The position numbers were made by a program, and so were the translations under genes. From Patescibacteria group bacterium (GTDB lineage Bacteria > Patescibacteriota > Microgenomatia > Levybacterales > UBA12049): a stretch of DNA of 58,895 bases. Positions 10,450 to 26,815 of the stretch are shown here, one piece after another. Positions within the stretch are counted from its first letter, which is position 1, and each line of letters begins with the position of its first letter. The notes below the pieces were generated by a model. It saw only the letters and a list, made by a program, of their open reading frames with translations. It did not search any database and was not told the origin of the DNA. The DNA lies in the NCBI GenBank assembly GCA_036392095.1, contig DASVYQ010000110.1, forward strand, positions 1-58,895, read 5' to 3'.

Positions 10450-12222
10450 ATGCAAGCAGTTATTAAAAAGCTTGAGAAAATTCCAACAGTTGGCATTGTT
10501 TTTTTCTATATTCTTCTTGGTTTTATTTTGTATGCAGGTTCTTTATTTAGTGCCTTTATGGCAGATGATTTAGAACAGATCGTCAGAAATCCGCTTGTGC
10601 AAACTTTGTCCAATATCCCAAAAGATTTTTTAGCTACGAGTACGTTTAATACCGGTGGAGGACTAAGTCATGGCTTGTATTACAAACCCGTGCTTTTATT
10701 ATTTTTTACAATTTTCTATAACCTTGGCGGAAATGGCTCTTGGTTTTTGCATGTTGTACAGGTCGCAATTCATATTGCCAATGCAATTTTTGTATTTATT
10801 TTACTTAAAAAATTTTTCCCAAAGCTAGGGGCATTGTTAGGCAGTTTTTTGTTTCTGATTCATCCAGTCAATATAGAAACAGTTGTCTATATTTCTAACC
10901 TGCAAGATGTATTATTTTTCTTTTTTGGAATGCTGTCTCTGATTATTTTTCTTTCAAAAAAGTCATATATGTGGCAGGGAGTTGCCCAAGTTTTGCTGTT
11001 ATGCAGTTTACTTTCTAAAGAAACCGGTATTCTATTTTTTGCCGTAATTCCTTTATTACTCTTTTTCTTTGCATCAAAAAAACAAACACTTCAGTTTTTT
11101 CTTGGCATTATTCCAACAATTATTTTGTATGCAGCGCTTCGGTTTGGAGTAGCAGGCATACCAATTGTTAATAAAAGCAATTTTCCGCTCACATCTGTGC
11201 CTTTAGGAATGCGTTTGTTGTACATCCCATATTTGATTCAGTATTATCTAAAAGCATTTTTTTGGCCTTCTGATTTATTTGTTTTTCAATTGTGGGGAAT
11301 AAAAACACTTACATTTACTACATTTTACGGCCCACTTCTGGTAGACAGTATTTTTGTGATACTCGCAGCGCTTATTGGAGTTTTTCTAAAATATAAAAAA
11401 TCTCCATGTACGCTTGCTTTTGTATTCTTTGCTATATGGTTTACTCTTGGCATGTTGTTGCATTTACAAATTGTGCCGCTTGATGCAACAGCTGCAGGAA
11501 GATGGTTTTATTTTCCGGAAGTAGGAATAATCGGCATGCTGTTATGTTTTTTTGCAAGTGTGTCTGTTACAAAAAAAGGAATAAAAACAGCAGGTTTGTA
11601 CGTTATTGCCGTTATTCTTCTTATTCTATTTATTCGTTCTTTTATTCGGGTTTCACAATGGAGTAGTGCCTTAGTGCTGTTTCAAAGAGATTGGAAGGTT
11701 GGTTACAACACTTATACCGGTGATACAAAAGAATTTACTTACTTTAGTCCAATGGAATCTTTATTAGCTGTGGAATTATTAAATAATGGTTTTATAGAAG
11801 AGGCAAAGCAGCACTTTTTGCATGCTGCAATGGTGAGTACAGACAGCTACACAAAAGCAGTCGCATTAAATAATCTTGCAGTAACCTATGAAAAGCTAGG
11901 GGATTATACCAATGCCCAAAAAACATATCAGGAAGAATTGCATATTTCTAATTTTTATATTGGTTACAACAATTATGCAGATTTTTTAACTAGACATGCA
12001 GATGTAAAAGAAGCACAAACATTTATTGTAAAATCGCTTCAGCTTTTTCCAGACAATGCACAGCTATGGTATGACCTTTCAGTTGTAGAAAATGCATTAG
12101 GTAATACTACAGAAGCTCACAATGCATTACAAAAGGCTCTTGCACTTGATAGTACCATTGTCTCTCAAAATCAGAGTATGCAGCTTCCATCAAATGTGCC
12201 TTTATATAATAAAAAACAATGA
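10450..12222 (+). CDS. TMTC-like GT-C membrane glycosyltransferase with C-terminal TPR repeats
   Basis: About 10-12 TM helices. It has the luminal acidic motif FMADDLEQIVRNP and the DUF1736-type motif IHPVNIETVVYISN. The C-terminal TPRs include LNNLAVTYEKLGDYTNAQKTYQE. Confidence 0.75.
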   Translation: MQAVIKKLEKIPTVGIVFFYILLGFILYAGSLFSAFMADDLEQIVRNPLVQTLSNIPKDFLATSTFNTGGGLSHGLYYKPVLLLFFTIFYNLGGNGSWFLHVVQVAIHIANAIFVFILLKKFFPKLGALLGSFLFLIHPVNIETVVYISNLQDVLFFFFGMLSLIIFLSKKSYMWQGVAQVLLLCSLLSKETGILFFAVIPLLLFFFASKKQTLQFFLGIIPTIILYAALRFGVAGIPIVNKSNFPLTSVPLGMRLLYIPYLIQYYLKAFFWPSDLFVFQLWGIKTLTFTTFYGPLLVDSIFVILAALIGVFLKYKKSPCTLAFVFFAIWFTLGMLLHLQIVPLDATAAGRWFYFPEVGIIGMLLCFFASVSVTKKGIKTAGLYVIAVILLILFIRSFIRVSQWSSALVLFQRDWKVGYNTYTGDTKEFTYFSPMESLLAVELLNNGFIEEAKQHFLHAAMVSTDSYTKAVALNNLAVTYEKLGDYTNAQKTYQEELHISNFYIGYNNYADFLTRHADVKEAQTFIVKSLQLFPDNAQLWYDLSVVENALGNTTEAHNALQKALALDSTIVSQNQSMQLPSNVPLYNKKQ

Positions 12223-13379
12223 TTACTGCCTTTTTAAAAAACAGATCTGCACTTTTTTCTTTGGCAACAGTTGTATATATACTGCTGTTTGTTATTTCTC
12301 TTTCCTTAGGGCATAGAGAAACAGATGAGGTGGTGTATCAAACATTAGGGATGCAGTTATTTTTGCATCACAGTTATAGTTTGCAAGGTACAGATATGCT
12401 TAGGTTTTTGCCTAAAGCAATTTATGATACGCCAATCTTTTTCCATCCTCCAGTATTTCCATTTATTTTAGGATTGTTGTACGTTGTTGGTGGAGCATAT
12501 GCAGACTTTCTTATTCCACCGCTTATTTTTGTTTTTATAACCATTTTTATTTATAAGCTGGCTTTTAAAATATCCCAATCAGAAACAACGGCAGTAAAAG
12601 CATATGTGCTTGCGTTATTTTCTCCTATGCTTTTATTGACTGCAACTAAATTGCATTTAGATTTACTTATGACGCTTTTTATAGTCCTAGCATTCTATTT
12701 TGAAGCAGTTTCCTTTGAGACACAAAAGAAAAAAGATATAATTTTTTCCGGCATTTGCATAACACTTGCTTTGCTTACTCGATATACAGCAATCTTAGCA
12801 GTACCTTTTTTACTTTTCTGGGCAATACAGAAAAGAGTAGAGGTAAAAAAGATAGCCTTGTTTTTTTTACCAATGGTTGTATTTGGTTTGTGGCTACTAT
12901 ACTTTTTTGCCAAACAAGGATTTATTGGATTTACTAGTACAGCTCCAACAGCAGAATCTATTCTTCATTATCCGTTTTTATACTTAACAGTAAAAGTAAG
13001 AAAATGGTATTTTTACTTTACTAGTATATTTTTGGTTAATCCGTCTTTGTTATTTTTATTTTGGTATGCAAAGAAGTCTATCTATAAAAAAATAAATTTT
13101 TCTGTAATACTGTTTGGTGCTTTTGCGCTAACGCTTCTTGTTGCAATGACAATTATGGGAGTAGCAGGGTATGGGTTTCAAATGCGCTATATTGTGGCTG
13201 TTGAGCCATTTTTACTAATCATTATTGCCATGCTACCAATTGAGAAGAATAAATCAGTATCATTTTTACTACTTCTTTTTCTTGTCCATAATGTGCTTTT
13301 ATTTTTTTACAACGGAATTATTTTCCAAAGCGCAGATATGACATCATTTTTAGAACGATTGGTTTACCATCTTCACTAA
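12219..13379 (+). CDS. ArnT/PMT_2-like GT-C membrane glycosyltransferase
   Basis: 386 aa, polytopic, with an N-terminal loop HRETDEVVYQTLG...FFHPPVFPF (DE and HPP motifs). It has a 4-nt ATGA overlap with the upstream gene. Confidence 0.6.
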   Translation: MITAFLKNRSALFSLATVVYILLFVISLSLGHRETDEVVYQTLGMQLFLHHSYSLQGTDMLRFLPKAIYDTPIFFHPPVFPFILGLLYVVGGAYADFLIPPLIFVFITIFIYKLAFKISQSETTAVKAYVLALFSPMLLLTATKLHLDLLMTLFIVLAFYFEAVSFETQKKKDIIFSGICITLALLTRYTAILAVPFLLFWAIQKRVEVKKIALFFLPMVVFGLWLLYFFAKQGFIGFTSTAPTAESILHYPFLYLTVKVRKWYFYFTSIFLVNPSLLFLFWYAKKSIYKKINFSVILFGAFALTLLVAMTIMGVAGYGFQMRYIVAVEPFLLIIIAMLPIEKNKSVSFLLLLFLVHNVLLFFYNGIIFQSADMTSFLERLVYHLH

Positions 13380-15325
13380 TTGCCGGCTAAGAGTTGTTGA
13401 AGCTGCTGTAAGTCACTTAATGCTTCTGCATTTTGAACGCCTTTTTGCCAAACTGCATTAGCTTGAGCTGTATCATTTAGTACATTTTTGTAGAGTTGTC
13501 CAAGGCGAATATAGATAATGCCTCGTGTTGGATCAAGAATCAATGCCTTTTTATACATACTAACAGCTTTGTCATACTCGTGACTTAGCGTATAAATTGC
13601 AGCTAGATTTACATAAGGGGATGCAAAGTTTGCGTTTAAATTTACTGCTTTTTCAAAATCTTGTTGGGCTGTTGCATATTGTTTGTCTTGCCAGAGTAAA
13701 AGTCCAAGCGCATTTTCAGAAATAGCCGAGTCAGTAATAGCAATCATACGAGAGTAATCTGCAATCGCTTGTTTTTCTAAGCCCTTTTTATATGGAACAT
13801 CTTCATAAGGAGTTGCCCCAAGGGCAGCATATTGCTTAAGAAGAGCAGTATTCTTATTGTCATTGCGGACAAAGATTTCAAATGAATCATCCCAGTATAC
13901 AAGATTCCAGTTTTTGTCTAAAGAAAGAATATGGGAAACTTTAGTTGTATAGGTGTTTTTCTGTGTTTTAATTAAGATATACGAAATGTTGTATTTGTTC
14001 CATAAATTATTTAAAAGTGTGTGGTATTGATCATCGGGAAGATATTTATTGTCATAAAGTTTTTGGTAATCATATAATTCACAGCACATGTATGGATCCA
14101 TTCTGCCGTCTATAAACACAGTGTGTTTGGGATACAAGTTATAGAGAAGAAAGCCTCCAAAACTGTATTCGTTAAATAAATTGCCCTGTATATTTGTTTT
14201 TTGAATAAATCTCATTGCATTAACCGGATATGCCTGCATAATAGAATTCTCAGGATACATTTGCTTATAGATTAGTTGACCTGCAAATAAACAAAAAATA
14301 AAGCCTGTTGCTATGTAAAAAAGCGGCATGTATTTATTTTTTATTTTCCATAAAGAAAGTGCCCAACCAGCAAGAAAAATAAGGCCCAAATAGCCATAGT
14401 AAGTGTTTCTAATGGCAGTAAAACCAGATAGAGCCATAAGTACAAAAGGAACAAATAACAAATAAGTAAGTGGTTTTTTAAAGTAAATGGTTATACCACT
14501 TGCTATGCCAACAACTCCCAACACAGCAACATAAGGATATAACTTTGCAGGGCTTTGTAATAAAGGTCCCCATTCATACACAAATTCGCTAATAACATGG
14601 TTGTTTTGCAAATATTGTCCTACCAAGACATATTGCAAATAGCCAACAGGGGGGAGAAGACTAAGCAGCAAATTTCCCAATCCAAAAAGAGCAAGTATTT
14701 TTGCCTGCTGTAAACTATAGTCTTGTTTTAGTGCTTTTTTTGCAAATACTAAAAGTACTGCAAAGCCTAAAAACATTGGAACATTTAAAACACTTGATGC
14801 ATGCAAATTCGACCACAACAACGTAATTGGCAGAGAAATCCAGAGTAAGTTTTTCTTCTGAAGTATGTAATAAAGGATAAGGTTAAGATTAGTAATAAAA
14901 AAAATAATGGCAACAATTTGCGTTCTTGCACTAATAAAGCTTTGGGTAATTTCTAAAAATGCAAAGCACAGCAAAAAAGCGAAAATTGGCTTTAGGGTGA
15001 ATGTTTTTCGTAAAAAGAAGTATAAAACAGCAATCTGCAAAAATACAAAAAAACTGACAAAATATACCAAGTTGTTAAGGCTAAATGTATGAACAAACAG
15101 ATACAAAATAACCTGAAAAAGCCATTCAAACGGAATCCACTCCCTTTGTGATGCAAAATTGGAAAACACATCTTTAAATACAATGCCATGGGTTGCAAAA
15201 ATTTCTCCTGATTTTGTGTGATACCAGGTGTCTGCATCTAAGACATGTTGTCCGATAATTCCTGCAACAAAAACATAAGCTAACAAAGCAAGAAATATAT
15301 AGGGGATTAGGCTTCTAAGCTTCAT
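13376..15325 (-). CDS. Polytopic membrane protein (GT-C-like, family unassigned) with C-terminal TPR repeats
   Basis: 649 aa. The N-terminal loop is LDADTWYHTKSGEIFATHGIVFKDVFSNFASQREWIPFEWLFQV. At least 3 TPRs are visible (FEKAVNLNANFASPYVNLAAIY...). It is a paralog of 15344-17062. Confidence 0.5.
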   Translation of the reverse strand: MKLRSLIPYIFLALLAYVFVAGIIGQHVLDADTWYHTKSGEIFATHGIVFKDVFSNFASQREWIPFEWLFQVILYLFVHTFSLNNLVYFVSFFVFLQIAVLYFFLRKTFTLKPIFAFLLCFAFLEITQSFISARTQIVAIIFFITNLNLILYYILQKKNLLWISLPITLLWSNLHASSVLNVPMFLGFAVLLVFAKKALKQDYSLQQAKILALFGLGNLLLSLLPPVGYLQYVLVGQYLQNNHVISEFVYEWGPLLQSPAKLYPYVAVLGVVGIASGITIYFKKPLTYLLFVPFVLMALSGFTAIRNTYYGYLGLIFLAGWALSLWKIKNKYMPLFYIATGFIFCLFAGQLIYKQMYPENSIMQAYPVNAMRFIQKTNIQGNLFNEYSFGGFLLYNLYPKHTVFIDGRMDPYMCCELYDYQKLYDNKYLPDDQYHTLLNNLWNKYNISYILIKTQKNTYTTKVSHILSLDKNWNLVYWDDSFEIFVRNDNKNTALLKQYAALGATPYEDVPYKKGLEKQAIADYSRMIAITDSAISENALGLLLWQDKQYATAQQDFEKAVNLNANFASPYVNLAAIYTLSHEYDKAVSMYKKALILDPTRGIIYIRLGQLYKNVLNDTAQANAVWQKGVQNAEALSDLQQLQQLLAGN

Positions 15326-15343
15326 AGATATATTGTATCAAGA

Positions 15344-17062
15344 CTATTTGCAAAGTGTGCTATATTGTTGTGCATACAATTGCATACTTGTATCATTTGT
15401 TGCATAAAATGCATTTGCCAGTGATTGTAAAGCAGTACAATCTTTAGGATTTAGGCTTAAAACCTGCTTGAGTGCAGCAATTTCAGATTTATTCCATTGC
15501 AGTCTTTGAAAAAGTAAAAGCAAGTTGTACAGCGCTTTTATATTTGTAATTTTTATTGGATTAAATGCATCTGATTTTATAGCAAATTTTTCTATGATTG
15601 CTTTATTTGAAGGTATATCTTTTACAAAAATAATTGTATATCCATCAAGATATACTAAGCGCCAAGAAGAGTCAGCTAAAAGGGAAGTAAAAAGATTTGG
15701 ATTATAATACGGACTTATACCATATTCATAAAACACTGAATTAAATTTGTATTTTGCTTCTTGTTGTTTAAAAGTAGCATAGTTGGCAAGCATAGGGCCA
15801 TATACCTTAGTAAAAAAGCTGGTAGGATAAGCCTCTGGGCGTTCGTCTACAAACACTTTTTCTCTTGGAAAAAGTCTATAAATTAAATAACTGCCAGTGT
15901 CAAAGTTATTGAAGATCGGGCCTGTCAGATTGTTTTTGATAAAAAAATCTACTCCTTGCTTGGGAAAGGTAGATTCAGTAATTCCAAAGCCTTGTGAAGC
16001 TATAACAAAATAAATGCAACTAAGTGTAGTTACTATTCCAATGCAATATAAAACAAGCGTATTTTTCTTTTGCAACATACTTTGTGTGCTTTGTGAAAGA
16101 TACAAAGCAAAAGGAATAAATACTGCGTAGACAAATAAAGGCATGTTTCTAACAGCGGTGGTGGCAATAAGAGTAAAGCTTATTGCCAAAAGCCAGTCGG
16201 CAAGTGAGGTTTTCTTTTTATTCAAATACAAAACCACAAATAATAAAACAGCACTTATTTCAAAAAACCAGATTGCAGGAAGCATAAACCTCATTTGTGC
16301 CAAAAAAATATTTTGATTCTCCTCAAGCACAACTCCGTAGTTGTTAAAAATAAACAAAGGGTAGAGTGCCCCTTTTATCCCAAACGGATTTATAAACAGC
16401 GTTGCACTTGCAATAAAAAGAACAATCAAAAGTTCTATAACCGGCTTTGGTAAGTTCTTTTTCTCAAAAATCTGCTTTTTATTTGTCCACAAAGCATCAA
16501 GTACAAAAATACCAAGAATACCAATTCCTATTGGAAAGTAAATATGCATGTTTGTCCATAAAAGTTGTACGGGAATTAGTAGATAAATTAATCTAGTATG
16601 ATGCTTTTTGAAATAATAAAGTATTGTTATAAAAAAAGTAGTAAACAAAAAACTAAACAACTCAGGTCGTGGGTCTGTGCGCTCAAGTAAAATAAAGATA
16701 CTTAAAAACGTAACTATAGAAAGGGCAAACAAATTTGTTTTTTGTTTTATGCTATAGATAAAAACAACTGCAAACGCTGTTACTCCCAATAAAACACCAA
16801 CATATCCAATACCAAACACGCCAACCACAAGAGAGAGAAGATAAAAAACAACTTCTGAAAACCAATGAGAATTAATAAAAACAAAATGTGGATTGGTATA
16901 TGAAAATAAATTTTCATGAGGAATATGCACAGTCGTAACAATAATTTTGCCAAGAGTTAGATGTCTTGCCAAATCCTGATTTAATGCAGTTAAAGGATGA
17001 AAATACAGAGTAAAGAGTAAAAAAAATAAAAGAAAAATAAAGAAAAATTTGAGCATTCGCAT
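15344..17062 (-). CDS. Polytopic membrane protein (GT-C-like, family unassigned), paralog of 13376-15325
   Basis: The equivalent loop is LNQDLARHLTLGKIIVTTVHIPHENLFSYTNPHFVFINSHWFSEV, and the C-terminus is weakly TPR-like. I prefer the ATG at 17062 (MRMLKFFFIF...). The longest ORF reaches 17152 but would overlap the divergent gene. Confidence 0.5.
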   Translation of the reverse strand: MRMLKFFFIFLLFFLLFTLYFHPLTALNQDLARHLTLGKIIVTTVHIPHENLFSYTNPHFVFINSHWFSEVVFYLLSLVVGVFGIGYVGVLLGVTAFAVVFIYSIKQKTNLFALSIVTFLSIFILLERTDPRPELFSFLFTTFFITILYYFKKHHTRLIYLLIPVQLLWTNMHIYFPIGIGILGIFVLDALWTNKKQIFEKKNLPKPVIELLIVLFIASATLFINPFGIKGALYPLFIFNNYGVVLEENQNIFLAQMRFMLPAIWFFEISAVLLFVVLYLNKKKTSLADWLLAISFTLIATTAVRNMPLFVYAVFIPFALYLSQSTQSMLQKKNTLVLYCIGIVTTLSCIYFVIASQGFGITESTFPKQGVDFFIKNNLTGPIFNNFDTGSYLIYRLFPREKVFVDERPEAYPTSFFTKVYGPMLANYATFKQQEAKYKFNSVFYEYGISPYYNPNLFTSLLADSSWRLVYLDGYTIIFVKDIPSNKAIIEKFAIKSDAFNPIKITNIKALYNLLLLFQRLQWNKSEIAALKQVLSLNPKDCTALQSLANAFYATNDTSMQLYAQQYSTLCK

Positions 17063-17134
17063 ACCTGTACTATACAAGCATTTATGGTAAAAGTGTAGGG
17101 GAGTGATTATAATAAAAAAGTGATAGATAAACTG

Positions 17135-18511
17135 ATGCAAAAAATTGAACATGCCTCTTTGTTAAAGATTTCTTTTGTGTTATGTCTTATTGGATTTTTG
17201 CTTTATGTACGCATGCTTGGCAATAATTTTGCTCTGGGAGATGATAAATATCAGATTCAAGTAAATGCACTTATAAAGCATGTAAATACTATCCCGCAAT
17301 TATTTTTAGGGAGTACTGTCTATGATCCTTCAGGGAAAGAATTAAACGGAGTGTATTACAAACCGCTTATGGAAACTGCATTCGCTCTTATTTATGTAGT
17401 TTTTAAATTGAATCCCTTTGGCTACCATTTATTCGATCTTGTTTTTCACTTGATAAATACCATTTTGTTATTCGTTTTTTTAAGAAAATTATTTGCTTTG
17501 CAAAAAATGCAGCATGAGCAGGTGTTATCATTTTTTATTAGCCTTATTTTCTTAATTCATCCTGCAAACGTAGAAAGTGTGGCATTTATTGCAAGCACAC
17601 AAGAGCTGTTGTATATGTTTTTTCTTTTTATAACCATGCTGGTTAGTTTGCGCTTTTTGGAAAAATCTTCTAAAAAACTTCTGATTATTATTACGGTAAG
17701 CACATTTGCATCACTTTTATCTAAAGAGGCAGGTGTAGTCGCTCTTATTGTTTCACCCTTGGCTGCATATTTATATAATAGGTCAAAAACAATTGCCCTT
17801 TTTTTAGCAAATGCAACTGGGTTTCTTTTATATATACTTTTGCGACTTGGGATTGCTCATGTTCCTTTTGATACAAAAATTCCTGAGCCAATTATGATGG
17901 CTTCATTGCCACAGCGGCTTATTACCATTCCTTATGAACTTTATACTTATATACGTCTCATTTTCTTTCCCAAAGATTTATACATATGGTATTTATGGGT
18001 AGTAAGAAGCATCTCAGATACTCGTTTTGTGCTTTTGTTGCCGTTTGATTTGCTAATTATTGGTTTTTTTGTGCTTTTTCTGTTTAAGCTTAAATCAAAA
18101 CTGTATATATTTTTCTTTATCTGGGCAATGGTTGGTTTTGGGATTGTAAGCAATATCTTCCCAATTGATGCAACCATAGCAGAGCGGTGGGTATATGGCC
18201 CGTTAATAGGTGTTTTAGGCATGCTTGCGTTAATTGCTGCTGCGTGGATTAAAAAATCTCATCAAGCAAAGGTATGGCTGTTGCTTATTTTGGTAATTTT
18301 TTTGCCCTTTTTTGCCATTCGAAGCTATGTGCGAATAGGAGACTGGAAAGACACCTTAACCCTTTTTGGCCACGATGAGCAATATCATCAAGATTCGTCC
18401 ATTTACTACTACCATTATGGCTTATTCCTTAAAGATGCCGGCAAAACAGACATGGCCCAGCAGATGCTTATCCGCTATATCTACAATGCTCATATGTATG
18501 GTCCGCAATAG
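17135..18511 (+). CDS. TMTC-like GT-C membrane glycosyltransferase (no clear TPR region)
   Basis: It has LGDDKYQIQVNALIKH and IHPANVESVAFIAS motifs. I prefer the ATG at 17135; the track uses a GTG at 17120. Confidence 0.7.
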   Translation: MQKIEHASLLKISFVLCLIGFLLYVRMLGNNFALGDDKYQIQVNALIKHVNTIPQLFLGSTVYDPSGKELNGVYYKPLMETAFALIYVVFKLNPFGYHLFDLVFHLINTILLFVFLRKLFALQKMQHEQVLSFFISLIFLIHPANVESVAFIASTQELLYMFFLFITMLVSLRFLEKSSKKLLIIITVSTFASLLSKEAGVVALIVSPLAAYLYNRSKTIALFLANATGFLLYILLRLGIAHVPFDTKIPEPIMMASLPQRLITIPYELYTYIRLIFFPKDLYIWYLWVVRSISDTRFVLLLPFDLLIIGFFVLFLFKLKSKLYIFFFIWAMVGFGIVSNIFPIDATIAERWVYGPLIGVLGMLALIAAAWIKKSHQAKVWLLLILVIFLPFFAIRSYVRIGDWKDTLTLFGHDEQYHQDSSIYYYHYGLFLKDAGKTDMAQQMLIRYIYNAHMYGPQ

Positions 18512-18638
18512 AGAAAAACTTGCTATTTCGGGCTTTTTGCTATATACTACTAGATAGTCAATTAACTCCAAGGTCACCTTCTCTAACAAGAAAAAGGAAC
18601 TCAAGGGGAAAGCGATAAAAGAGGAGGTGAATACTAAA

Positions 18639-18950
18639 ATGGCAAATTTTCAAGATCAAACATTAACTTGCCGCGATTGTGGCAAACCATTTGTTTGGAC
18701 CGCTTCAGAACAAGAATTTTACGCATCTAAAGGATTTCAAAATGCACCAGTTCGATGTGCAGAATGTCGAGCAGCAAAAAAATCCCGAATGGGCGATTCT
18801 CATGGCCGAGGTGGAGGATTTGGTGGAGGACAAAGACAATCTTTCGAGATTACATGTTCTAACTGTGGCAAAAAAGACACAGTACCATTCCAACCAAAAG
18901 GTGATAGACCAGTATTATGTCGAGATTGCTTTAGAGCAAAGCGAGGCTAA
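18639..18950 (+). CDS. Double zinc-ribbon protein (zf-trcl-like plus CxxC-x17-CxxC)
   Basis: MANFQDQTLTCRDCGKPFVWTASEQEFYASKGFQNAPVRCAECR, a Gly-rich linker, then CSNCGKKDTVPFQPKGDRPVLCRDC. An AGGAGG lies shortly upstream of the ATG at 18639. Confidence 0.8.
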   Translation: MANFQDQTLTCRDCGKPFVWTASEQEFYASKGFQNAPVRCAECRAAKKSRMGDSHGRGGGFGGGQRQSFEITCSNCGKKDTVPFQPKGDRPVLCRDCFRAKRG

Positions 18951-19029
18951 TACTCTGTGTCATTCTGGCTAGTCCAGAATCAAACCTGGAGTCCACGATT
19001 GTGGATTTACCAGGATGACACAAACAAAA

Positions 19030-19058
19030 ACACTCCCCAAAAGGGAGTGTTTTTTGTT
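19030..19058 (+). terminator. Rho-independent terminator
   Basis: An 8-bp stem ACACTCCC/GGGAGTGT, a 5-nt loop, then TTTTTGTT. Confidence 0.6.
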
Positions 19059-19158
19059 AGGTGGAAAAAGTTGCTTTTGTGTATAAGAAACAGGAGAAAG
19101 ATAAGGGTAGAAGACAGTTTCTCTTGCTTGCTTGCTTCTTGTTTCGTACACTAAGAGT

Positions 19159-20505
19159 ATGTCGTCTTTATCTGCCCTTAAAGATAAATCGCTTGTTTTG
19201 GTTTTAGCATATTCTCCGTTTGGATTAGGTCATCTGCGCGTTACCGATGCTTTATATCATGGTTTGCCAGAAGAAATAACTCCAATATTGTTAGGCGCAC
19301 AAGATACATCAGTTACTGCTATGTATAGAATTGCCAGTATTCATCCCTTAACCCGTCTCCTCATGCTCGCACTTGAGTACGGAATAGGGGAGGATCTGTT
19401 TACCTATTTTTACAGGCGATATATGAATAATCATTCAGAATTATTGTATCGTCAATTAGAAACTATTTTAGATCAGAGAATTGAAACTCCAAAGACAATG
19501 CTCATAGTTGCCACACATTTTGGCTTGGCTCATCAATTAGCAAAAATCAAAAACCGCATTATGAAAGAGAAAAATGTCAAAATTATTTTGGCAGTACAAA
19601 TAACCGATGACAGTCCTCAGCATATTTGGTATGTGCCCGAAGCAAATGTAATTTTTAGTCCAAGTATGAGAACAGCAGAAAGTTTACTCGCATATGCCAG
19701 AAAAAGTAATTTGCCTCTTACTAAAATAATCGTGAATAGCTATCCAACAAGTCCTTTATTAAGTAAAGAGTTTTCAGAGGAAAAATATAAAAAAAGAATT
19801 GCTCAGGTTGATCCTAAATCAAAGGCAAAAATTCATGTTGCCATACCGTTGTCAGGTGCGGCAGTTGGTATGAGCTATTATCAACTTTTAATGCGGCATT
19901 TATATGCCCATAATGAACGTTTTTTCTTTCATGTTATTGGGAAAAAAACTCCATATACCAAACATTTTTTAGAGAGCAGTGCACAAATGCCGCAAGTAGA
20001 TTTACATATATCACTAACCGATAGAGAAGTTGTGGGAGAATACGAAAAAGCATATCAAAATGAATGTATTGCTCTTGAGGTCACAAAACCGTCAGAACAG
20101 GCTTTTAAAGCACTTTTTTGCCCAAATTATGTTGGTGGATCAATTCTGCTTTTTACAGAGCCTGTGGGTAGACAAGAGCGTGATAATTTGTACTTTTTAA
20201 GACGTCATCATTTAATACCAACAGAAAAAGAACAAGCATATATAGAACACGCCAGTTTGCACAGTGTGCCTCTTGTTCCAAAAGACAATATTTTACCTGC
20301 AGCTTCACATTGGCGGGGTGTAAGACTTCCCAAAGATCCAAAAATAGCAGCTTTATTTATTGAATGGGCATTAAAACAAGGAATTTTTTCCCAAATGGAT
20401 AGTAATTGTCCAAAAGGGCATAGAAGTGATGAAACAGAAATTCATGGTACAGCGCATTTTTGGGAATATATAAACCAGCTAGTCATAAAGGAATCCCTTC
20501 TGTAG
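19159..20505 (+). CDS. Cytoplasmic protein, possibly a GT-B (MGDG-synthase/GT28-like) glycosyltransferase
   Basis: No TM helices. The N-terminus LVLAYSPFGLGHLRVTDALYHGL resembles the G-x-G-H loop of MGDG-synthase-type enzymes. I prefer the ATG at 19159; the track uses a TTG at 19132. Confidence 0.35.
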   Translation: MSSLSALKDKSLVLVLAYSPFGLGHLRVTDALYHGLPEEITPILLGAQDTSVTAMYRIASIHPLTRLLMLALEYGIGEDLFTYFYRRYMNNHSELLYRQLETILDQRIETPKTMLIVATHFGLAHQLAKIKNRIMKEKNVKIILAVQITDDSPQHIWYVPEANVIFSPSMRTAESLLAYARKSNLPLTKIIVNSYPTSPLLSKEFSEEKYKKRIAQVDPKSKAKIHVAIPLSGAAVGMSYYQLLMRHLYAHNERFFFHVIGKKTPYTKHFLESSAQMPQVDLHISLTDREVVGEYEKAYQNECIALEVTKPSEQAFKALFCPNYVGGSILLFTEPVGRQERDNLYFLRRHHLIPTEKEQAYIEHASLHSVPLVPKDNILPAASHWRGVRLPKDPKIAALFIEWALKQGIFSQMDSNCPKGHRSDETEIHGTAHFWEYINQLVIKESLL

Positions 20506-20515: not shown

Positions 20516-22201
20516 ATGAAAAGGCTTGCTCTCTCTTCGTGGATAATGATACTTGTCTCTCTTTTGTTACTTAGTTTCATTGCACTCCCTTTCGTAAATG
20601 CTGGCATTTTTTTTGGTCATGATATTTATTTACACACTGTCTATGTTCAAAAATTTTATGAAGCATTCTCACAAGGACAGTTGCCGGTACGAGTAATAGA
20701 TTGGATTTTTCCAGGATTTAATCAGCCTCTCTTCACCTTTTATCAGCCTGGATTTTATTACCTGACAGTACTTTTTAAACTGCTGCATTTTTCAACAAGT
20801 GATGCTATAAAAATAACTTCATTAGGCTTGTGGGTTGTAGGTGGAGTAGGCATGTTTTTGTTTACAAAAAGAAAAGCAGGATTAGCAGGCGGGCTCATCG
20901 CCTCAATTTTCTATACATTTGCGCCATATCACATTGTAGATATTTTTGTGCGGGCTGCATTGCCAGAATTTGCTGCCTTAAGCATAGTTCCGTTTTTGTT
21001 TTTAGGAATTGACGGTATGTTTACCTCTGCAAATCGTTTTTATTGGTGGCTTACTTCTCTAAGTATTGCTGTCCTTTTGTTATTTCATCCGCCAACCGCA
21101 CTTATGTTTTTGCCATTAGCAGGTTTGTATTGTCTCTATTTTTTGATACAAAAAGATAGAGTACGAAATATTTTGAAGTTGTTGTTGGTAACAAGTATTG
21201 GTTTTTTAATCAGTGCATTTTTTCTACTTCCTGCTTTTTTTGAGAAACAATTTATTTTTTTACAAAAGGCAGCGACAGGGAATTATGATTTTCATAATCA
21301 TTTTGTTTGCTTTTCTCAGTTATTAAAAACAGATTGGGGATATGGGTTTTCAGTTCCTGGGTGCAATGACACCATGCCATTTGCAATTGGATCGCTGCAC
21401 ATATTTTTTGTATTAGTCTTAGTTATTTTTCTTTTAGTGTTTCTTATACAAAAAAAATGGAGAAGAGAATTCTGGTTGCTAGGTATATTTATTGCCATAT
21501 TTTTCTTTTCCCTGTTTATGACCGGATTTTGGTCAAAGCTTGTATGGGAAAAAATTCCTTTCCTTACTTTTGTACAATATCCATGGCGTTTTTTATCTGT
21601 TGGAATTTTTACAGCCTCATTTTTAACAGGGTACGCAGTTTTTCTTTTGCCAGATTCGCTTCGTTTTAGAAGTTTTATCGCAATAGTTGCGCTTGTTTGT
21701 ATTTTATATGTGCCATATGTACATCCATTAACGTATTACTCACAACAATCGCTTGTGTTTGATAAAAATGGATTTACTAACTATTCAGACTACGTTAATG
21801 CAAAACATGATCCTGAGTCATTTTATGACCCCACAACGGCAATAAAACGAGTAACTCCAGCTACCATTTATTCTCAAATCACCTTTGAAAAAAAAGGAAA
21901 CATTTTAGAAGAAAAAACAACTGCTGCTGCTAAAACATTTATAGTTACAATGCCACAAGAGCAATCAATTACACTATATGTTAGATATTTTCCGGGATGG
22001 AATATAACACTTGATGGGAAAGTTTCTCATGTTATGCTTGATTCGTATGGATATGTGCATTTGCACCTTCCAGCAGGAAAGCATACGATTATAGCTTCTT
22101 ATACACAAACGCGTTTAGAAAAACTGAGTAATTATATAACTGTTTTTGCCTTTGTTGCCTCATTCTTATTCTTTCTTCCTATTAAAAGAAAAGTTGTTTA
22201 A
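20516..22201 (+). CDS. PTPS-related (PF10131-like) polytopic membrane protein, GT-C-like
   Basis: GIFFGHDIYLHTVYVQKFYEAFSQGQLPVRVIDWIFPGFNQPLFTFYQPGFYYL matches the family signature. It is followed by more than 10 TM helices and a soluble C-terminal beta domain. Confidence 0.6.
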   Translation: MKRLALSSWIMILVSLLLLSFIALPFVNAGIFFGHDIYLHTVYVQKFYEAFSQGQLPVRVIDWIFPGFNQPLFTFYQPGFYYLTVLFKLLHFSTSDAIKITSLGLWVVGGVGMFLFTKRKAGLAGGLIASIFYTFAPYHIVDIFVRAALPEFAALSIVPFLFLGIDGMFTSANRFYWWLTSLSIAVLLLFHPPTALMFLPLAGLYCLYFLIQKDRVRNILKLLLVTSIGFLISAFFLLPAFFEKQFIFLQKAATGNYDFHNHFVCFSQLLKTDWGYGFSVPGCNDTMPFAIGSLHIFFVLVLVIFLLVFLIQKKWRREFWLLGIFIAIFFFSLFMTGFWSKLVWEKIPFLTFVQYPWRFLSVGIFTASFLTGYAVFLLPDSLRFRSFIAIVALVCILYVPYVHPLTYYSQQSLVFDKNGFTNYSDYVNAKHDPESFYDPTTAIKRVTPATIYSQITFEKKGNILEEKTTAAAKTFIVTMPQEQSITLYVRYFPGWNITLDGKVSHVMLDSYGYVHLHLPAGKHTIIASYTQTRLEKLSNYITVFAFVASFLFFLPIKRKVV

Positions 22202-24231
22202 GGAGCTGGAGTTGGGGATACCGGAAGAGATAATTGTTGATTTGCTGTTGTCTGTACTGGTTTTACTACTGGCGTTGTAGATGTTGTGTTAGATGTTCCT
22301 TGTGCTTTAATTTTATCTTGCAATGCGCTTATTTCTTTATTCACTTTGTTTTCATTATCTTTATTACTTACTACTAATTGTGCAACTATTTGATATTGTG
22401 CAAGAGCATTCTGCAGATCACCTTTTTCTTCATATGCATGGCCCAAATTGTAGTATGCATTTGCAAAATCAGGTTTTAAATTTACTGCCTGTTGGAATAC
22501 TTTGATTGCGTTATCATATTGTTTTAATTGATAGTACAAAGCACCTAATGTCATGTATTCTTGTGGGTAGTTAGGATCTAAAGCAACTGCTTGCTGCATT
22601 CCTTGTATTGCAAACGTATCTGATCCTTGTCCAAATCCTAAGATACTTCTGTAATATGAAGAGTAGTTTTGCCAATTTAAGACATTGTATGGAGAAAGCG
22701 TTGTTGCTGTTTTTGCTGCATTAATACCTTGTTGGATTAAATTAATAACAGTTGATTGTACTTGTTGATCTGGTTTTTGATTTTTTTGAGAGTTTAATGC
22801 AATTACTGAATTAGCAATAGATAAATTTGTTTGAGAAAATGTTCTAAAGAAACTGTCTCTGTAAGGGAAGAGTGAAATTGCCTGAATTTGTTTTTGATAG
22901 GTTGCTGTCCCGTTATTTTGTTGTGCTGCAACAATAGATTGGCTAAAAATAATATCAGAGATAGTATAAATAGTTGCGTAATATCCAATAACACCGGCAA
23001 TTGCAAATAAAAGAACAGAGAAGACAATTGGCATAATCTGACTTGTTTTTGCAGCTTGTACTTTGTGTTCTGCATTAAATAATTCTCTTCTTAATGTAAC
23101 CAAGAATAATTCAAGGTCAAAAGATTTTGTACTGTTTTTTATTCCTTCTTGAGCAACAAACAAACTTAGAATAAAAAAGAATAATGCGATTTCTATAAAA
23201 GAGAAAGGAAAAATAATTGAGCTTATTATTAATATAAGTAGTGATATATAGAGTGGGTTATGGAATGATTTTACCGGTTTAATAACTGTTTTTATAATAA
23301 TAAAGGCAAAAGCTAAAAAGCCTAAAATTCCAGTGGTTGCAATAAGTTCTAAGACATAGCTTGATGATTGGAAAAAGCTTAAGTACCAAAGAGAAGGATA
23401 AGAATTAAAGCTAAGTGGTCTAAATCTGGTAAAGTCCATAAAGAAAGTGCCAGTACCACTGCCAAAGAAAAAGCTTTGAGCAATGCGTGTTGTATCTTGA
23501 GAAATTGTAGAAAATGCAATTTGAAATCCAGTAACAAAGGGAAGAATAACTAAATTATTTTGCATAATGATTTGATAGATAACCAATACGATATCTGCAG
23601 CTAAGATAAGTGTTGCAATTAAAAATGCAATTGATTTTTCATTTATTTTTCTTTTTATTAATGGGTATGCAAAGTATCCGGCAACAGGAAGCATTGCTGC
23701 AAGATATAAGCTGTGTTCTAATAAGCTACCCGTTGTAGTAAAAGAATTGGTATGGGTAAATGCAAAAGGAAGAACATAGACTTTAAAATAAGAGAGCATG
23801 TGAATAATTGCCATTGCACAAGCGCTTAACACTAATGAAGCAGTAAAAAAGAAAACAGATTCTTCTGTTTTAGCTGCATTTACAATTGCAAAGTAACTAA
23901 TCCCTAAAACAACATACATTGTTGCTCCAACAAGTGCGTCAATTCTTGCAATAGAGAATACTGCAGATAAAACAATTACAAGAATAAATAAGAATACCGG
24001 CAAATCTAAGAATGTTTTTCGTAAAAGAATTTTTTTACTAATAATTGCATTAACACCAATAAGCAGAAGTGACACTAAAGCAACTACTGTAATAAGTATT
24101 TGTTTTGGCATTATGTATGTTTCTGTTGTTGCGTTGAAAAAGAGAATAGGGAAGAGTAAAAAACAGATTCCCCAAATAAATTGGAGTGTTGTTTGCAAGT
24201 ATTCTAACACTTGTTTTTTTGAGTTTTGCAT
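22198..24231 (-). CDS. O-antigen ligase/Wzy-like polytopic membrane protein with C-terminal TPR repeats and an S/T/P-rich tail
   Basis: The Wzy_C-like segment is SSSYVLELIATTGILGFLAFAFIII. TPRs include ALDPNYPQEYMTLGALYYQLKQYDNAIKVFQQAVNLKPDFANAYYNLGHAYEEKGD. The tail is TSNTTSTTPVVKPVQTT...PVSPTPAP. Confidence 0.6.
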   Translation of the reverse strand: MQNSKKQVLEYLQTTLQFIWGICFLLFPILFFNATTETYIMPKQILITVVALVSLLLIGVNAIISKKILLRKTFLDLPVFLFILVIVLSAVFSIARIDALVGATMYVVLGISYFAIVNAAKTEESVFFFTASLVLSACAMAIIHMLSYFKVYVLPFAFTHTNSFTTTGSLLEHSLYLAAMLPVAGYFAYPLIKRKINEKSIAFLIATLILAADIVLVIYQIIMQNNLVILPFVTGFQIAFSTISQDTTRIAQSFFFGSGTGTFFMDFTRFRPLSFNSYPSLWYLSFFQSSSYVLELIATTGILGFLAFAFIIIKTVIKPVKSFHNPLYISLLILIISSIIFPFSFIEIALFFFILSLFVAQEGIKNSTKSFDLELFLVTLRRELFNAEHKVQAAKTSQIMPIVFSVLLFAIAGVIGYYATIYTISDIIFSQSIVAAQQNNGTATYQKQIQAISLFPYRDSFFRTFSQTNLSIANSVIALNSQKNQKPDQQVQSTVINLIQQGINAAKTATTLSPYNVLNWQNYSSYYRSILGFGQGSDTFAIQGMQQAVALDPNYPQEYMTLGALYYQLKQYDNAIKVFQQAVNLKPDFANAYYNLGHAYEEKGDLQNALAQYQIVAQLVVSNKDNENKVNKEISALQDKIKAQGTSNTTSTTPVVKPVQTTANQQLSLPVSPTPAP

Positions 24232-24302: not shown

Positions 24303-25028
24303 TTATTTTCCGGAGATCTTTCGTAAGATAAATCCAAGTGGAGTAATGCCTCCTAATACTTCCCAGATAATATCTGGTGTACCTGTTCCAGGCAATTTAG
24401 ATGCATTTGAAGGAGAATAAACTGCGCCCAATACTTGGCTGGCATTAATATTATTGTTGTTTGTGTTGTTATTGTTATTTGTATTGCTTGGATTATTGTT
24501 AATAACCGGGTTAAAGTTAATACTTTGATTTTGATATTGTAATTGCTGTTGGCAAACAACTACTGCAACACCGTTAAGATACACAGTAATTGGTGTGCAA
24601 TTAGTCATATCTGTTGTTGGAGTTGGTGTTGCAGTTGGTACATCGGTTGGACTAACAGTTCCTGTTGGTGTATCTGTTGGAGAATCAGTTGGTGTTATTG
24701 TATCTGTTGGTGTTGGTGAATTTGCTGGGCAATATTCTCCTATTGGAAAAGCAATCTCGCATGCTGGGTGATCGTAGGCACATAATGGCAATGGGATGCA
24801 AGTTGGTGAAGCAGTAGGATCTTCATCAGTTGGTGATGCTGTTGGAGAGGTAGTATCGGTTGGCGCAACAGTATCTGTCGGAACTATTGTATTGGTTGGA
24901 GATTGGGTATCTGTAGCAGTTGGATTATCTGCATTAGCATTTTTTACAGCACTTGGTTGTATTGCATTAATATACAATCCCATAACCACCAAAATGCCAA
25001 AAAATGCTATAGATCTATATAGTTTCAT
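24303..25028 (-). CDS. Thr/Pro-rich LPXTG-anchored surface protein
   Basis: It has a signal peptide, two PT(D/N)T-type low-complexity blocks flanking a 4-Cys core, and an Asn-rich tract. LPGTG (nt 24395-24381) is followed by a hydrophobic stretch and RKISGK. Confidence 0.75.
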   Translation of the reverse strand: MKLYRSIAFFGILVVMGLYINAIQPSAVKNANADNPTATDTQSPTNTIVPTDTVAPTDTTSPTASPTDEDPTASPTCIPLPLCAYDHPACEIAFPIGEYCPANSPTPTDTITPTDSPTDTPTGTVSPTDVPTATPTPTTDMTNCTPITVYLNGVAVVVCQQQLQYQNQSINFNPVINNNPSNTNNNNNTNNNNINASQVLGAVYSPSNASKLPGTGTPDIIWEVLGGITPLGFILRKISGK

Positions 25029-25111: not shown

Positions 25112-26815
25112 ATGACCACAAAGAAACTTGTTGCACTTCTTATTGGCATAACTCTTTTTGCCTATGTTTCTTCTTTAAACAATCCTTTTATTTGGGATGA
25201 TGAGCAATTTATCCAAAAAAATGTTTATGTACAAAATTTTGATGTAGAAAAGATTTTTACTACAAATACCGTGGCGGGAGCTGGGCTTGAGAGCAATTAT
25301 TACCGTCCGCTGACATCATTAAGCTTTGCTATAGATACCAAACTGTGGGGACAAAATCCTTTTGGCTTTCATATAACAAATTTTCTGCTTCATGTAGGTG
25401 CGGGAATTATCTTATTTTTTGTATTACAACAACTTGGCCTTTCAAAGCTGTTTTCCTTTGCAGTAAGCAGTATATTTTTAGTTCATCCTATCCAGACAGA
25501 GGCTATAACCTATATTAACTCTCGTGGAGATTCGCAATATACCTTTTTCTTTTTTCTGTCTCTTTTAGTCTTTTTGCATGCAATATCTGCAAAGAAAAAG
25601 CGAGTACTATTATATATTCTTAGCATTGTATCCTACGTGCTAAGTATTTTTTCAAAAGAAACAGCTATGGCTGGATTTCTTGTATTTATAGGAATAATAG
25701 GTTTTCACTATGTGAAAACAAAAAAAATTGCTTTGGTCTCAATTCTAATGGCATCAGTGATAACAGTAATCTCAGTAGGGTATTTCTTGCTTCGATTAAC
25801 GCTGCTTAACTTTAATAACACGCTTAATTTTTATAACACTACAAACTTTTATTCAACACATCTTTTTGTCAGGCTATTTACGTTTACAAAAGTAGTATGG
25901 ATTTATATTGGTCTTCTGCTTTTCCCATATCCGTTGCATATGGAAAGGGAAGTAGGTTTGGTTACAAGCTTTATTTCCGGTTGGGTTGCTGCTTTTATCT
26001 TGCTTATTATTGGCTTAATCATTCTTATTATATGGGAAATAAAGAAATACAAAACAGCAGTTATTGGCTTGGGATTTCTTCTCTCAGCCAGTTTTCTTGT
26101 GCCTGTGTCAGGCATTATTCCTATTAATGGTATTTTGTATGAGCATTGGCTGTATATTCCTATGGTTGGTTTTTTTATTATTCTCTTTAGACTAATCCAA
26201 ATAGCTGCGGGGTTGGTTGGTAAAGCTGCAGCAACTAAGCTTGGAACACTTGGGATAATGTTACTTTGTTGCATTTGTGTTGTTTTGACAATAAGACAAA
26301 ACAACATTTGGTCAGACCCACTTACATTTTATACATATACGCTTGGTTTTGCCCCAAATTCTTCACGTCTTCACAATAATTTAGGTATGACGTATGCAGA
26401 TGCTGGGCACTTAGATGCTTCAATTGTTGAGTACAAAAAAGCCATTGCTTTGACTCCCGATCTGCCTCAAGTGTATAACAATTTGGGAATTTCCTATCAG
26501 AGAAAGGGAGATGTAAAAAATGCAGAAGTTGCCTTACAAAAATCCCTTTCCTTGGCACCGCATTTTGAGGCTGCACAAATTAATCTTATGGCTTTATATT
26601 TAAAAGAAGAGAAGTATGCAAAAGCTCTTCCGCTCTTACAAGCATTAGCTCCATATAGCCAGAATGATGTGAGATTTTTGTACACATATGGAAAAACACT
26701 TTGGAAGTTACAGCAATATGATGCAGCAGAAAAACAATTTGACAAGGCTGTTGCAGCTTCGGGCAATAATGCAGATGTTATAGCTCAAATCAATCAACTG
26801 AAAGCCTCAAGATAG
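25112..26815 (+). CDS. TMTC-like GT-C membrane glycosyltransferase with C-terminal TPR repeats
   Basis: It has FIWDDEQFIQKNVYVQN and VHPIQTEAITYINS motifs. TPRs include HNNLGMTYADAGHLDASIVEYKKAIALTPDLPQVYNNLGISYQRKGD. Confidence 0.75.
   Translation: MTTKKLVALLIGITLFAYVSSLNNPFIWDDEQFIQKNVYVQNFDVEKIFTTNTVAGAGLESNYYRPLTSLSFAIDTKLWGQNPFGFHITNFLLHVGAGIILFFVLQQLGLSKLFSFAVSSIFLVHPIQTEAITYINSRGDSQYTFFFFLSLLVFLHAISAKKKRVLLYILSIVSYVLSIFSKETAMAGFLVFIGIIGFHYVKTKKIALVSILMASVITVISVGYFLLRLTLLNFNNTLNFYNTTNFYSTHLFVRLFTFTKVVWIYIGLLLFPYPLHMEREVGLVTSFISGWVAAFILLIIGLIILIIWEIKKYKTAVIGLGFLLSASFLVPVSGIIPINGILYEHWLYIPMVGFFIILFRLIQIAAGLVGKAAATKLGTLGIMLLCCICVVLTIRQNNIWSDPLTFYTYTLGFAPNSSRLHNNLGMTYADAGHLDASIVEYKKAIALTPDLPQVYNNLGISYQRKGDVKNAEVALQKSLSLAPHFEAAQINLMALYLKEEKYAKALPLLQALAPYSQNDVRFLYTYGKTLWKLQQYDAAEKQFDKAVAASGNNADVIAQINQLKASR

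Follow-up and report, generated by a model that had tools for sequence, protein, structure and literature searches.

A 58.9-kb window of DNA from a metagenome-assembled genome (MAG) of a tiny, uncultivated member of the Patescibacteria, the whole stretch that was analysed, carries eleven genes in the interval 10450-26815. Eight of them encode polytopic membrane proteins of glycosyltransferase type. We label the genes of this interval by letters (A to I, and PT; Table 1), and related loci or contigs that were found by homology searches are numbered L002 to L093. Comparison with sequences of relatives indicates that the eight are long-diverged enzymes that accumulated at a variable surface locus, and that they neither arose nor travelled together. 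We propose that they glycosylate surface acceptors, probably Ser/Thr-rich proteins, outside the cytoplasm and from polyprenyl-linked sugars, and that tetratricopeptide repeats (TPRs) facing outward bind the acceptor or a partner protein. We give this reading of the variable locus a probability of about 0.55.

A preliminary description of this DNA had reported eight large multi-pass membrane proteins in the interval. All eight open reading frames (ORFs), A, B, C, D, E, G, H and I, were verified at their coordinates, and the position 17135 given there for E is an internal ATG of the ORF 17120-18511. Each of them has at least 8-10 hydrophobic segments in a crude count, and ComEC is the sole further protein of the window with at least eight transmembrane (TM) segments. 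Within about 10 kb of F there are eight polytopic ORFs of at least 350 amino acids (aa) here, as against zero to three in 80 other F-carrying genomes. Thus, the density of polytopic ORFs near F is far above background. The eight proteins sort into five families: A/E/I, B, C/D, G and H. Comparisons of A/E/I with C/D, of A/E/I with B and of C/D with G by hhalign were not significant and thus do not demonstrate that the five families share an origin. TPR arrays are significant in exactly four of the proteins (A, C, H and I), in agreement with the at least four C-terminal arrays described before.

Profile comparisons revealed that A, E and I are related to the eukaryotic TMTC proteins. TMTC membrane-domain sequences were taken from the supplement of Eisenhaber et al. 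2021 (PMC7801869), Table 4 of which was used as the motif table, and E-values were computed at Z=1e6, a nominal database of 10^6 sequences. A TPR-free hidden Markov model (HMM) of A/E/I scored 88-132 bits against human TMTC1-4 and fly TMTC1 and TMTC4 (E 3e-23 to 1.5e-36), and the HMMs of the C/D, H and F families gave no score against the same sequences. Reciprocally, an HMM of eukaryotic TMTCs matched I with 105.5 bits (E 2e-28), E with 62.3 bits (3e-15) and A with 52.1 bits (3.5e-12), and matched no other island protein. These scores indicate that A, E and I are true TMTC homologues. The motifs of the outer loops EL1 and EL2 are FMADDLEQI and HPVNIETV in A, GDD and HPANVESV in E, and FIWDDEQFI and HPIQTEAI in I, and they agree with those of real TMTC sequences, F[VC]xDDxxAI and HP[IV]HTE[AC]V. 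The three proteins (10450, 17135 and 25112) had been called TMTC-like from such DD and HP motifs, and the finding of both motifs together with HMM matches in both directions bears this out. Motifs common to A/E/I and the TMTCs are the DD of FxxDDxxxI in EL1 (M1), (S/Y)Y(R/K)P (M2), HPxxxE in EL2, KE(T/Q) in EL3 (M4) and (E/D)RxxY in EL5 (M7). At M2, YYKP or YYRP aligns opposite the SYRP of TMTCs (published motif SHKSYRP). At M7, the family consensus DRWFY stands opposite ERxxY; A has GRWFY and I has EHWLY, in which His replaces the Arg. I retains M3 (SRGD) as well, and its FIWDD, YYRPLT, HPIQTEA, SRGD and KET segments align with TMTC motifs. Residues invariant in the A family are DD39-40, P80, H138-P139, K190-E191, W352 and Y354.

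The nearest homologues of A are 36-42% identical and are mostly from Microgenomates (e.g., Daviesbacteria and Levybacteria). Several of them are titled 'glycosyltransferase family 39 protein' at NCBI, where A itself is identical to VF820_04110, a hypothetical protein. The score of A against PMT_2 is borderline (26.2 bits; cut-off 26.1), and many A homologues carry this domain (PF13231). The structure model of A has a pLDDT of 91.5. A search of PDB with the single A sequence returned TPR proteins only, and so did Foldseek with the A model among the 50 matches listed, so that the membrane domain was not placed; the TPR-free A/E/I profile had no significant sequence match in PDB. Full-length TMTC-like proteins with TPRs were already noted in many uncharacterised prokaryotes (PMC7801869), and hence this class is known but unstudied.

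We analysed the topology of the A and C models by combining DSSP helices, hydrophobicity and the positive-inside rule. Both proteins are predicted to be N-in with 11 TM helices, and KK/KR cluster in every predicted cytoplasmic loop. The outer loops hold all invariant polar residues, and the TPR arrays are placed on the outer side, in A after TM11. The outward orientation that the preliminary description had assumed is thus predicted for the TPRs of A and C, and a cytoplasmic position is not. For I, the topology would follow from its alignment to A. E is a TMTC-like core without TPRs.

The C/D family is rare, with 38 homologues in 5.8 billion clusters. Neither Pfam nor NCBIfam covers its membrane part in any of the family members checked; PDB searches returned TPR proteins only with the single C sequence and no sequence match with a TPR-free C/D profile. 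C and D, described before as unassigned paralogs (13376 and 15344), are indeed 22% identical (blastp 9e-12), and D is matched by the HMM of the family. D is 36.5% identical to the product of L002:6832-8547, and C is 44% identical to the homologue P0122. An AlphaFold model of C made from 36 sequences has a pLDDT of 91.9 and a pTM of 0.90. The best non-TPR matches of this model in Foldseek were STT3A (E 9e-7, TM-score 0.51), STT3B, yeast STT3, DPY19 (TM-score 0.47) and PglB (E 3e-4, TM-score 0.43), with the TM-scores of 0.43-0.51 covering about 580 columns; ArnT and PMT were not among the 50 matches listed. The model suggests that C and D have a glycosyltransferase fold of type C (GT-C) resembling the branch of oligosaccharyltransferase (OST) and the C-mannosyltransferase DPY19. 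Conserved motifs of the family are DxDxWWHLxxGE in the first outer loop, RPQ, LWSNLHGG, IxEWxSP, AxRN, and, in the extracytoplasmic alpha/beta domain, FNxYxWGGYLxW and VFVDGRTDLY. The invariant residues D32, H36, G40, W171, N173, H175, D406 and R408 of C are all on the outer face. The WWDYG motif of GT66 is missing in the family, which has YxWGGYL and VFVDGR instead, and for this reason we do not file C/D under GT66.

The remaining membrane proteins are B, G and H. B matches Pfam PMT_2 (PF13231) at 1.5e-12, with 48.4 bits against a cut-off of 26.1. G passes PTPS_related with 28.3 bits (cut-off 26.4) and is just below the cut-off of YfhO (26.9 bits; cut-off 28.5); the families of G in Pfam are PF10131 and PF09586, as YfhO / PTPS_related models. 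Thus, the ArnT/PMT_2-like and PTPS-related labels first given to these proteins (12219 and 20516) can be retained. The O-antigen-ligase-like label of H (22198) holds at the level of the family, six of whose 31 members match Wzy_C (best 1e-13). The membrane domain of H has 1,404 representative homologues; as most of them are about 700 aa long, the TM and TPR architecture appears to be conserved in the family. A metagenome scan with H alone found one short locus. F, described earlier as a cytoplasmic protein of the GT-B type, is soluble and has 1,144 homologues, with 46-50% identity across Microgenomates. MGDG_synth/GT28 (PF06925) matches 16 of 27 F homologues (best 2.2e-7) and not F itself. In PDB, the single F sequence had no match and the profile of the family had no significant sequence match.

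It might be supposed that some or all of these proteins are inactive, for instance as scaffolds or chaperones, or as paralogues that decay in a variable region. D and E have no TPRs, I has His for the M7 Arg, H is below the Wzy_C threshold, and the region is highly variable. However, all ORFs are intact, and the residues of the catalytic loops do not vary among the 36-50 homologues compared in each family. The models of A and C are confident and well packed. Moreover, each paralogue has orthologues of 36-44% identity elsewhere, which implies purifying selection. We consider inactivity highly improbable.

The gene order in relatives points to how the cluster came together. The backbone common to relatives is GT2 - DUF11 - Rho - M23/LysM - tRNA-Ala(GGC) - zf_Tbcl - F - H - giant. 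These relatives comprise L004/L007 (about 83% nucleotide (nt) and 81-98% aa identity) and L005, which is the same as L008 (42-79% aa identity). H and the giant gene are visible together only in L005/L008, because L004 and L007 end within H or F; there an H orthologue of 52% identity adjoins a homologue of the giant protein. H alone among the eight enzyme genes is kept in place on the backbone. The other enzyme genes lie in insertions relative to it. Accessory block 1 occupies an insertion at 4558-10320 and is missing in L004, L007 and L008. A-E occupy another, at 10397-18508, which starts directly 3' of tRNA-Ala(GGC); L004/L007 have this tRNA gene, with 100% identity over its 76 nt, between M23 and zf_Tbcl and lack A-E there. 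Further insertions are G between F and H (missing in L004 and L008) and PT+I between H and the giant gene (missing in L008). At the edges of the insertions, no integrase, att-like direct repeat or GC/compositional shift was found. These comparisons suggest that enzymes accumulated piecemeal around the conserved pair of H and the giant gene, which would answer why eight of them adjoin. Since, by comparison with close relatives, seven of the eight enzyme genes are accessory, the locus is better described as a variable surface-glycosylation locus than as one inherited factory.

The paralogues are old. A shares 36-42% identity with proteins of other genomes and only 31% with E and 26% with I (E and I, 29%), and C is 44% identical to P0122 and 22% to D. 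Local tandem duplication as the origin of A/E/I and C/D is therefore rejected, as the members of each family are closer to genes of other genomes than to each other.

The preliminary description had read the interval as one coherent 16-kb island, a single co-inherited factory in which F and its neighbours supply eight enzymes to one pathway. The tight packing with 4-nt overlaps (A/B, B/C and G/H) and the glycosyltransferase type of all eight enzymes fit such a unit, as do a trio of I, C and H orthologues that recurs in L093 and a family-level trio in L091. Nevertheless, synteny contradicts this reading, which is very unlikely. A-E, G and PT+I are three separate insertions: A-E and G are missing at these positions in L004/L007 and L008, and PT+I in L008. 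The genes are divided between both strands and form at least five transcription units, and the paralogues are old, as described above. F is also not linked to the GT-C genes. It was found in 227 genomes, and the neighbourhood was examined in 80 species-representative genomes; in 78 of the 80 no island-family GT-C lies near F, except for one TMTC-like gene in L019, and the backbone is shared by only the two nearest relatives. On this synteny, F as the cytoplasmic glycosyltransferase of the pathway was rejected.

Other genomes carry part of the enzyme set. The recurring PARTNERSHIPS shows that certain enzyme families co-occur, although the whole A-I set is not conserved. The relative L093 has orthologues of I, C and H as direct neighbours, close to zf_Tbcl and M23; the F family has no match in this locus. 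A Sumerlaeota contig (L091) carries Wzy_C - PMT_2+TPR - GT4 - C-family+TPR on one strand, and a Microgenomates contig carries two C/D-family genes beside a TMTC-like gene. The closest homologue of C adjoins a gene of at least 2,998 aa whose product contains 16% T, 13% G and 12% S and a PS/PT linker at its end. It could be imagined that C/D are an unrecognised bacterial class of protein glycosyltransferase or oligosaccharyltransferase, with an STT3/PglB/DPY19-like fold, a periplasmic domain and often a TPR array, which would form a three-enzyme module with Wzy_C-like+TPR and TMTC-like+TPR enzymes and glycosylate giant Thr/Ser-rich fibres in Patescibacteria, Sumerlaeota and Chloroflexi, the TPRs recognising the acceptors. 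We regard this extended proposal as speculative and rather doubtful. TPR-based acceptor recognition has been proposed for animal TMTCs.

What would the enzymes act on? PT and the giant protein are candidate acceptors. PT, noted before as a Thr/Pro-rich LPGTG protein, contains 15% T and 12% P, an N-terminal signal or anchor, PTDT repeats, and a complete sortase signal consisting of LPGTG at 212, a hydrophobic stretch and an RKISGK tail. The sortase encoded in the window is the anchoring enzyme expected for such a protein. The giant protein that abuts the interval was correctly described as Ser/Thr/Asn-rich, with 11% T, 11% G, 10% S and 9% N; it is T/G/S/N-rich beyond about residue 400.

In the mechanism that we propose, sugars would be attached to polyprenyl phosphate in the cytoplasm and then flipped to the outer side of the membrane, steps for which the window has no gene. 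The GT-C enzymes, whose outer loops contain the conserved acidic and basic residues, would then transfer the sugars at the outer face, where the transfer sites may consist of EL1 DD, KE and (D)RxxY in A/E/I and of DxD, NxH, EW and R in C/D. The TPR arrays, which are outside in the A and C models and presumably also in I and H, could hold extended acceptors or partner proteins. The acceptors would be mainly Ser/Thr-rich, namely the giant fibre, the PT LPGTG protein and other T/S-rich proteins nearby. The old paralogues may differ in sugar or acceptor specificity, and H may be the conserved partner of the giant fibre. Of the lipid-carrier-dependent protein glycosylation outside the membrane that was first suggested for these genes, the enzyme families, the outward TPRs of A and C and the presence of candidate acceptors and a sortase stand; the part that concerns protein acceptors is our inference, and a donor synthase was not found in the window.

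Several observations weigh against protein glycosylation at this locus. PF08409 (DUF1736) is matched by no island protein even at E<=10, and none of the 120 A homologues listed carries it. The DD and HP motifs had been said to define the eukaryotic TMTC O-mannosyltransferases (DUF1736), but they sit in EL1 and EL2, and DUF1736 is the TM7-TM8 loop. In this loop (EL4), which is shorter in A/E/I than in TMTCs, the M5 DW motif is missing, and ER in I and FQ..W in A occupy the aligned position. H itself has no Wzy_C (PF04932) match; the outward orientation presumed for its TPRs comes from a hand-made positive-inside count, with which it is consistent. The giant genes of L087 and of the window are not detectably homologous. 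Neither a polyprenyl-phosphate-sugar synthase of the GtrB/DPM1 type nor a flippase of the GtrA type was found in the window. Its single GT2 most closely resembles TuaG, EpsE, WcaA, PglI and heparosan synthase and matches PgfS (4e-5), DPMS (8e-5) and ArnC (5e-4) far more weakly. The backbone GT2 was accordingly rejected as an undecaprenyl-phosphate-sugar synthase, a role that is unsupported, and it resembles a glycan-elongating GT2. TPRs occur in polysaccharide-export machinery too, and SGNH and carbamoyltransferase genes, both present in accessory block 1, are typical of glycan tailoring.

In a different proposal, the enzymes would make or modify a glycopolymer of the cell envelope, such as a teichoic-acid-like polymer or a secondary cell-wall polysaccharide, or a lipoglycan, rather than modify proteins. 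H would serve as a polymerase or ligase of the Wzy type, branch sugars would come from polyprenyl-phosphate-sugars by way of the GT-Cs, and the SGNH proteins and the carbamoyltransferase would tailor the glycan. The mycobacterial Emb/Aft/PimE arrays add branch sugars onto arabinogalactan and lipoarabinomannan in this way. Elsewhere, C-family genes occur in arrays with Bac_transf and YfhO (L088), with PMT/PMT_2 (L089), with GT87 (L090), at least one of these in Chloroflexi, and with Wzy_C and GT4 (L091); arrays with Bac_transf, GT4, GT87 and PMT_2 would fit the assembly of a polysaccharide or lipoglycan equally well. In L002, homologues of A and D lie with Polysacc_deac_1, GDSL and Acyl_transf_3 genes. 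The three SGNH/GDSL genes and the NodU-like carbamoyltransferase of the accessory block, and the likeness of the backbone GT2 to TuaG, EpsE and WcaA, point in the same direction, and in Bacillus and Listeria the substrates that YfhO homologues glycosylate are teichoic acids (cited in PMC11092751). On the other hand, the closest characterised relatives of A/E/I (TMTC and GT39 PMT) and the fold matches of C (STT3, PglB and DPY19) act on proteins. C and H orthologues repeatedly adjoin giant Thr/Ser-rich genes and a PT-rich LPGTG gene. In addition, the window has no initiating phosphoglycosyltransferase, Wzx flippase or ABC exporter. We give a glycopolymer as the target a lower but still appreciable probability, and we hold the branch-sugar and tailoring roles just described to be equally tentative. 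Glycosylation of Ser/Thr-rich surface proteins remains the reading that we favor.

Accessory block 1, assigned by Pfam and NCBIfam, probably encodes glycan-tailoring enzymes. Membrane-anchored SGNH/GDSL proteins are encoded at 4596-5768, 5770-6927 and 9012-10178, and the NodU-like carbamoyltransferase at 7158-8819. Patches of 85% nt identity between the first two SGNH/GDSL genes (4833-4930 vs 5998-6095) indicate a recent tandem duplication.

Lipid-carrier-dependent extracytoplasmic glycosylation is already known, as are prokaryotic TMTC-like proteins, and the locus can be compared with several such systems. TMTC1-4 (GT-C/PMT clan; Pfam TMTC_DUF1736 + TPR) share with A/E/I the 11-TM domain and the M1, M2, EL2, M4 and M7 motifs. 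They also have a C-terminal non-cytoplasmic TPR array, as A and I do and E does not. In contrast to them, A/E/I have no DW motif, I has His at the M7 Arg, and the carrier would be polyprenyl phosphate rather than dolichyl phosphate. The second comparison is with the Gram-positive GtrB/PgtC2 and the Pgf system of S. mutans (PgfS-PgfM1/M2), in which YfhO-type GT-Cs, comparable to G, act outside the membrane on Ser/Thr-rich segments. These GT-Cs O-glycosylate Ser/Thr-rich regions, and the Pgf cluster adjoins its adhesins (PMC11092751). Ser/Thr-rich LPXTG genes adjoin the enzymes in these systems, and here PT lies between H and I, the giant gene is adjacent, and the window also encodes a sortase. 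Unlike these systems, the window has no clear GtrB/PgfS-type synthase and has seven further enzymes of other families. The streptococcal enzymes have no TPR fusions, and G barely passes PTPS_related and is below the YfhO cut-off.

GT39 PMTs of Actinobacteria and Cbes_1864 of Caldicellulosiruptor bescii are PMT_2/GT39-type GT-Cs that O-glycosylate secreted proteins from lipid-phospho-sugars, Pro/Thr linkers like those of PT included. A GT39 enzyme glycosylates such Pro/Thr linkers (PMC6151902). There, a single enzyme is present, whereas four PMT_2-clan genes (A, B, E and I) are present here, and TPRs take the place of the MIR and loop-1 domains. With PglL/PilO/WsaB and WaaL/Wzy, H shares a family that reaches Wzy_C, and it adjoins a candidate target, as many pglL genes adjoin their targets (PMC3643930). 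H differs from PglL and WaaL in its C-terminal TPR array and S/T/P-rich tail, and the roles of polymerase and O-oligosaccharyltransferase are indistinguishable here. To our knowledge, Patescibacteria should have no lipopolysaccharide, and for this reason a WaaL role of H is unlikely. Finally, C resembles STT3/PglB/AglB (GT66) and DPY19 in its polytopic N-in core, after which comes an alpha/beta domain outside the cytoplasm, in a DxD in EL1 and in a conserved Arg of a late outer loop. It differs from them in that it matches no PDB chain or Pfam family by sequence, lacks WWDYG, has 11 and not 13 TM helices by our count, and carries added TPRs.

Compared with these systems, four points are new. 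TMTC homology is shown quantitatively for three paralogues in a Patescibacteria MAG. A GT-C family with a predicted OST/DPY19-like fold has no existing model. This C/D family recurs with Wzy_C-like and with TMTC-like or PMT_2 TPR enzymes, next to giant Thr/Ser-rich genes. The region beside the tRNA gene appears to be an accretion hot spot. Patescibacteria spend their lives on host cells, to which they are attached, and rely on contacts at the surface, and we know of no experimental knowledge of their surface chemistry. The locus is a testable candidate for surface glycosylation in this group and for its variation between close relatives. A, E and I are compact bacterial TMTC homologues (460-590 aa, confidently modelled, with and without TPRs); the way in which TMTCs recognise substrates through TPRs is relevant to human disease. 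In three phyla, a GT-C family with an OST-like fold and no Pfam model accompanies Wzy_C-like and TMTC-like enzymes. Should a wall polymer be the target, this would still be a hypervariable locus for glycans, and such loci usually reflect phage or host pressure.

Table 1. Coordinates, strand and assignment of features in the window (type assignments and topologies are predictions)
Feature	Position	Strand	Assignment
A	10450-12222	+	TMTC-like GT-C, 11 TM, C-terminal extracytoplasmic TPR array
B	12219-13379	+	PMT_2/ArnT-like GT-C, no TPR; start overlaps end of A by 4 nt
C	13376-15325	-	family without Pfam model; 11 TM, periplasmic alpha/beta domain ~357-510, TPR 517-648
D	15344-17152	-	paralogue of C (22% identity), no significant TPR
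E	17120-18511	+	TMTC-like GT-C, no TPR
zf_Tbcl	18627-18950	+	double treble-clef zinc finger, 107 aa
F	19132-20505	+	conserved soluble GT28-like GT-B; backbone gene
G	20516-22201	+	PTPS_related/YfhO-type GT-C between F and H
H	22198-24231	-	divergent Wzy_C (O-antigen-ligase/PglL)-like, TPR, S/T/P-rich tail
PT	24303-25028	-	secreted Thr/Pro-rich protein with LPGTG sorting signal
I	25112-26815	+	most TMTC-like GT-C, with TPR
giant	26840-36847	-	3,335-aa T/G/S/N-rich surface protein
tRNA-Ala(GGC)	10321-10396	+	ARAGORN and Rfam; conserved backbone gene
accessory block 1	4596-10281	+	SGNH/GDSL x3, NodU-like carbamoyltransferase, DUF5989 gene, tRNA-Ala(CGC)
sortase	57949-58656	+	Pfam Sortase 4.7e-20; NCBIfam sortase models

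Two start sites in Table 1 need comment. The first 30 residues of D are not aligned with its family and overlap the start of E, and hence the true start of D is probably M31 (17062). The start of F was set at a TTG (19132), which is probably incorrect; its homologues start where F has M10, so that the true start is probably 19159. Many MAG records with an F gene (L008-L086, TPA_asm) are titled 'uncultured Gammaproteobacteria/Pseudomonadales bacterium'. The informatively named F records are all from Microgenomates, WWE3 or other Patescibacteria, and the Gammaproteobacteria titles look like placeholders or errors.

Three observations concern the backbone. The zf_Tbcl gene and its flanks (18509-19059) are 94% identical to L004/L007 at the nt level, as against 78-84% for neighbouring genes; the conserved stretch extends beyond the gene by about 118 nt on its upstream side and by about 109 nt downstream, and Rfam has no match there. 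In L004 (5896-7812) and at the same place in L007, a 638-aa ORF without TM segments or a recorded Pfam match lies between Rho and M23. As it is absent from the window, it is another backbone indel. In L093, a 675-aa protein (6654-8681, - strand), likewise without TM segments or a recorded Pfam match, lies between the H orthologue and zf_Tbcl, which is the position of F.

The giant protein has two Phage_int_SAM-like domains (Pfam 5e-18) at its N-terminus, and its TM segments come after them, near residues 314 and 400. A cytoplasmic module of the integrase SAM-like type on a 3,335-aa fibre is an odd architecture, and the L005 homologue has the same domains. Downstream, five genes at 37379-43640 have no or weak Pfam matches, and several of their products have N-terminal signal-like and C-terminal TM segments; one secreted T/S/A/G-rich protein of 479 aa is encoded at 39768-41207. 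These genes look like a cell-surface cluster, and their products could be extra targets of glycosylation. Near the sortase gene and genes for tRNA-Pro and tRNA-Arg, genes for VKOR and a DsbA-like thioredoxin overlap (56489-57668), and thus an extracytoplasmic disulfide-forming pair adjoins the gene of the wall-anchoring enzyme.

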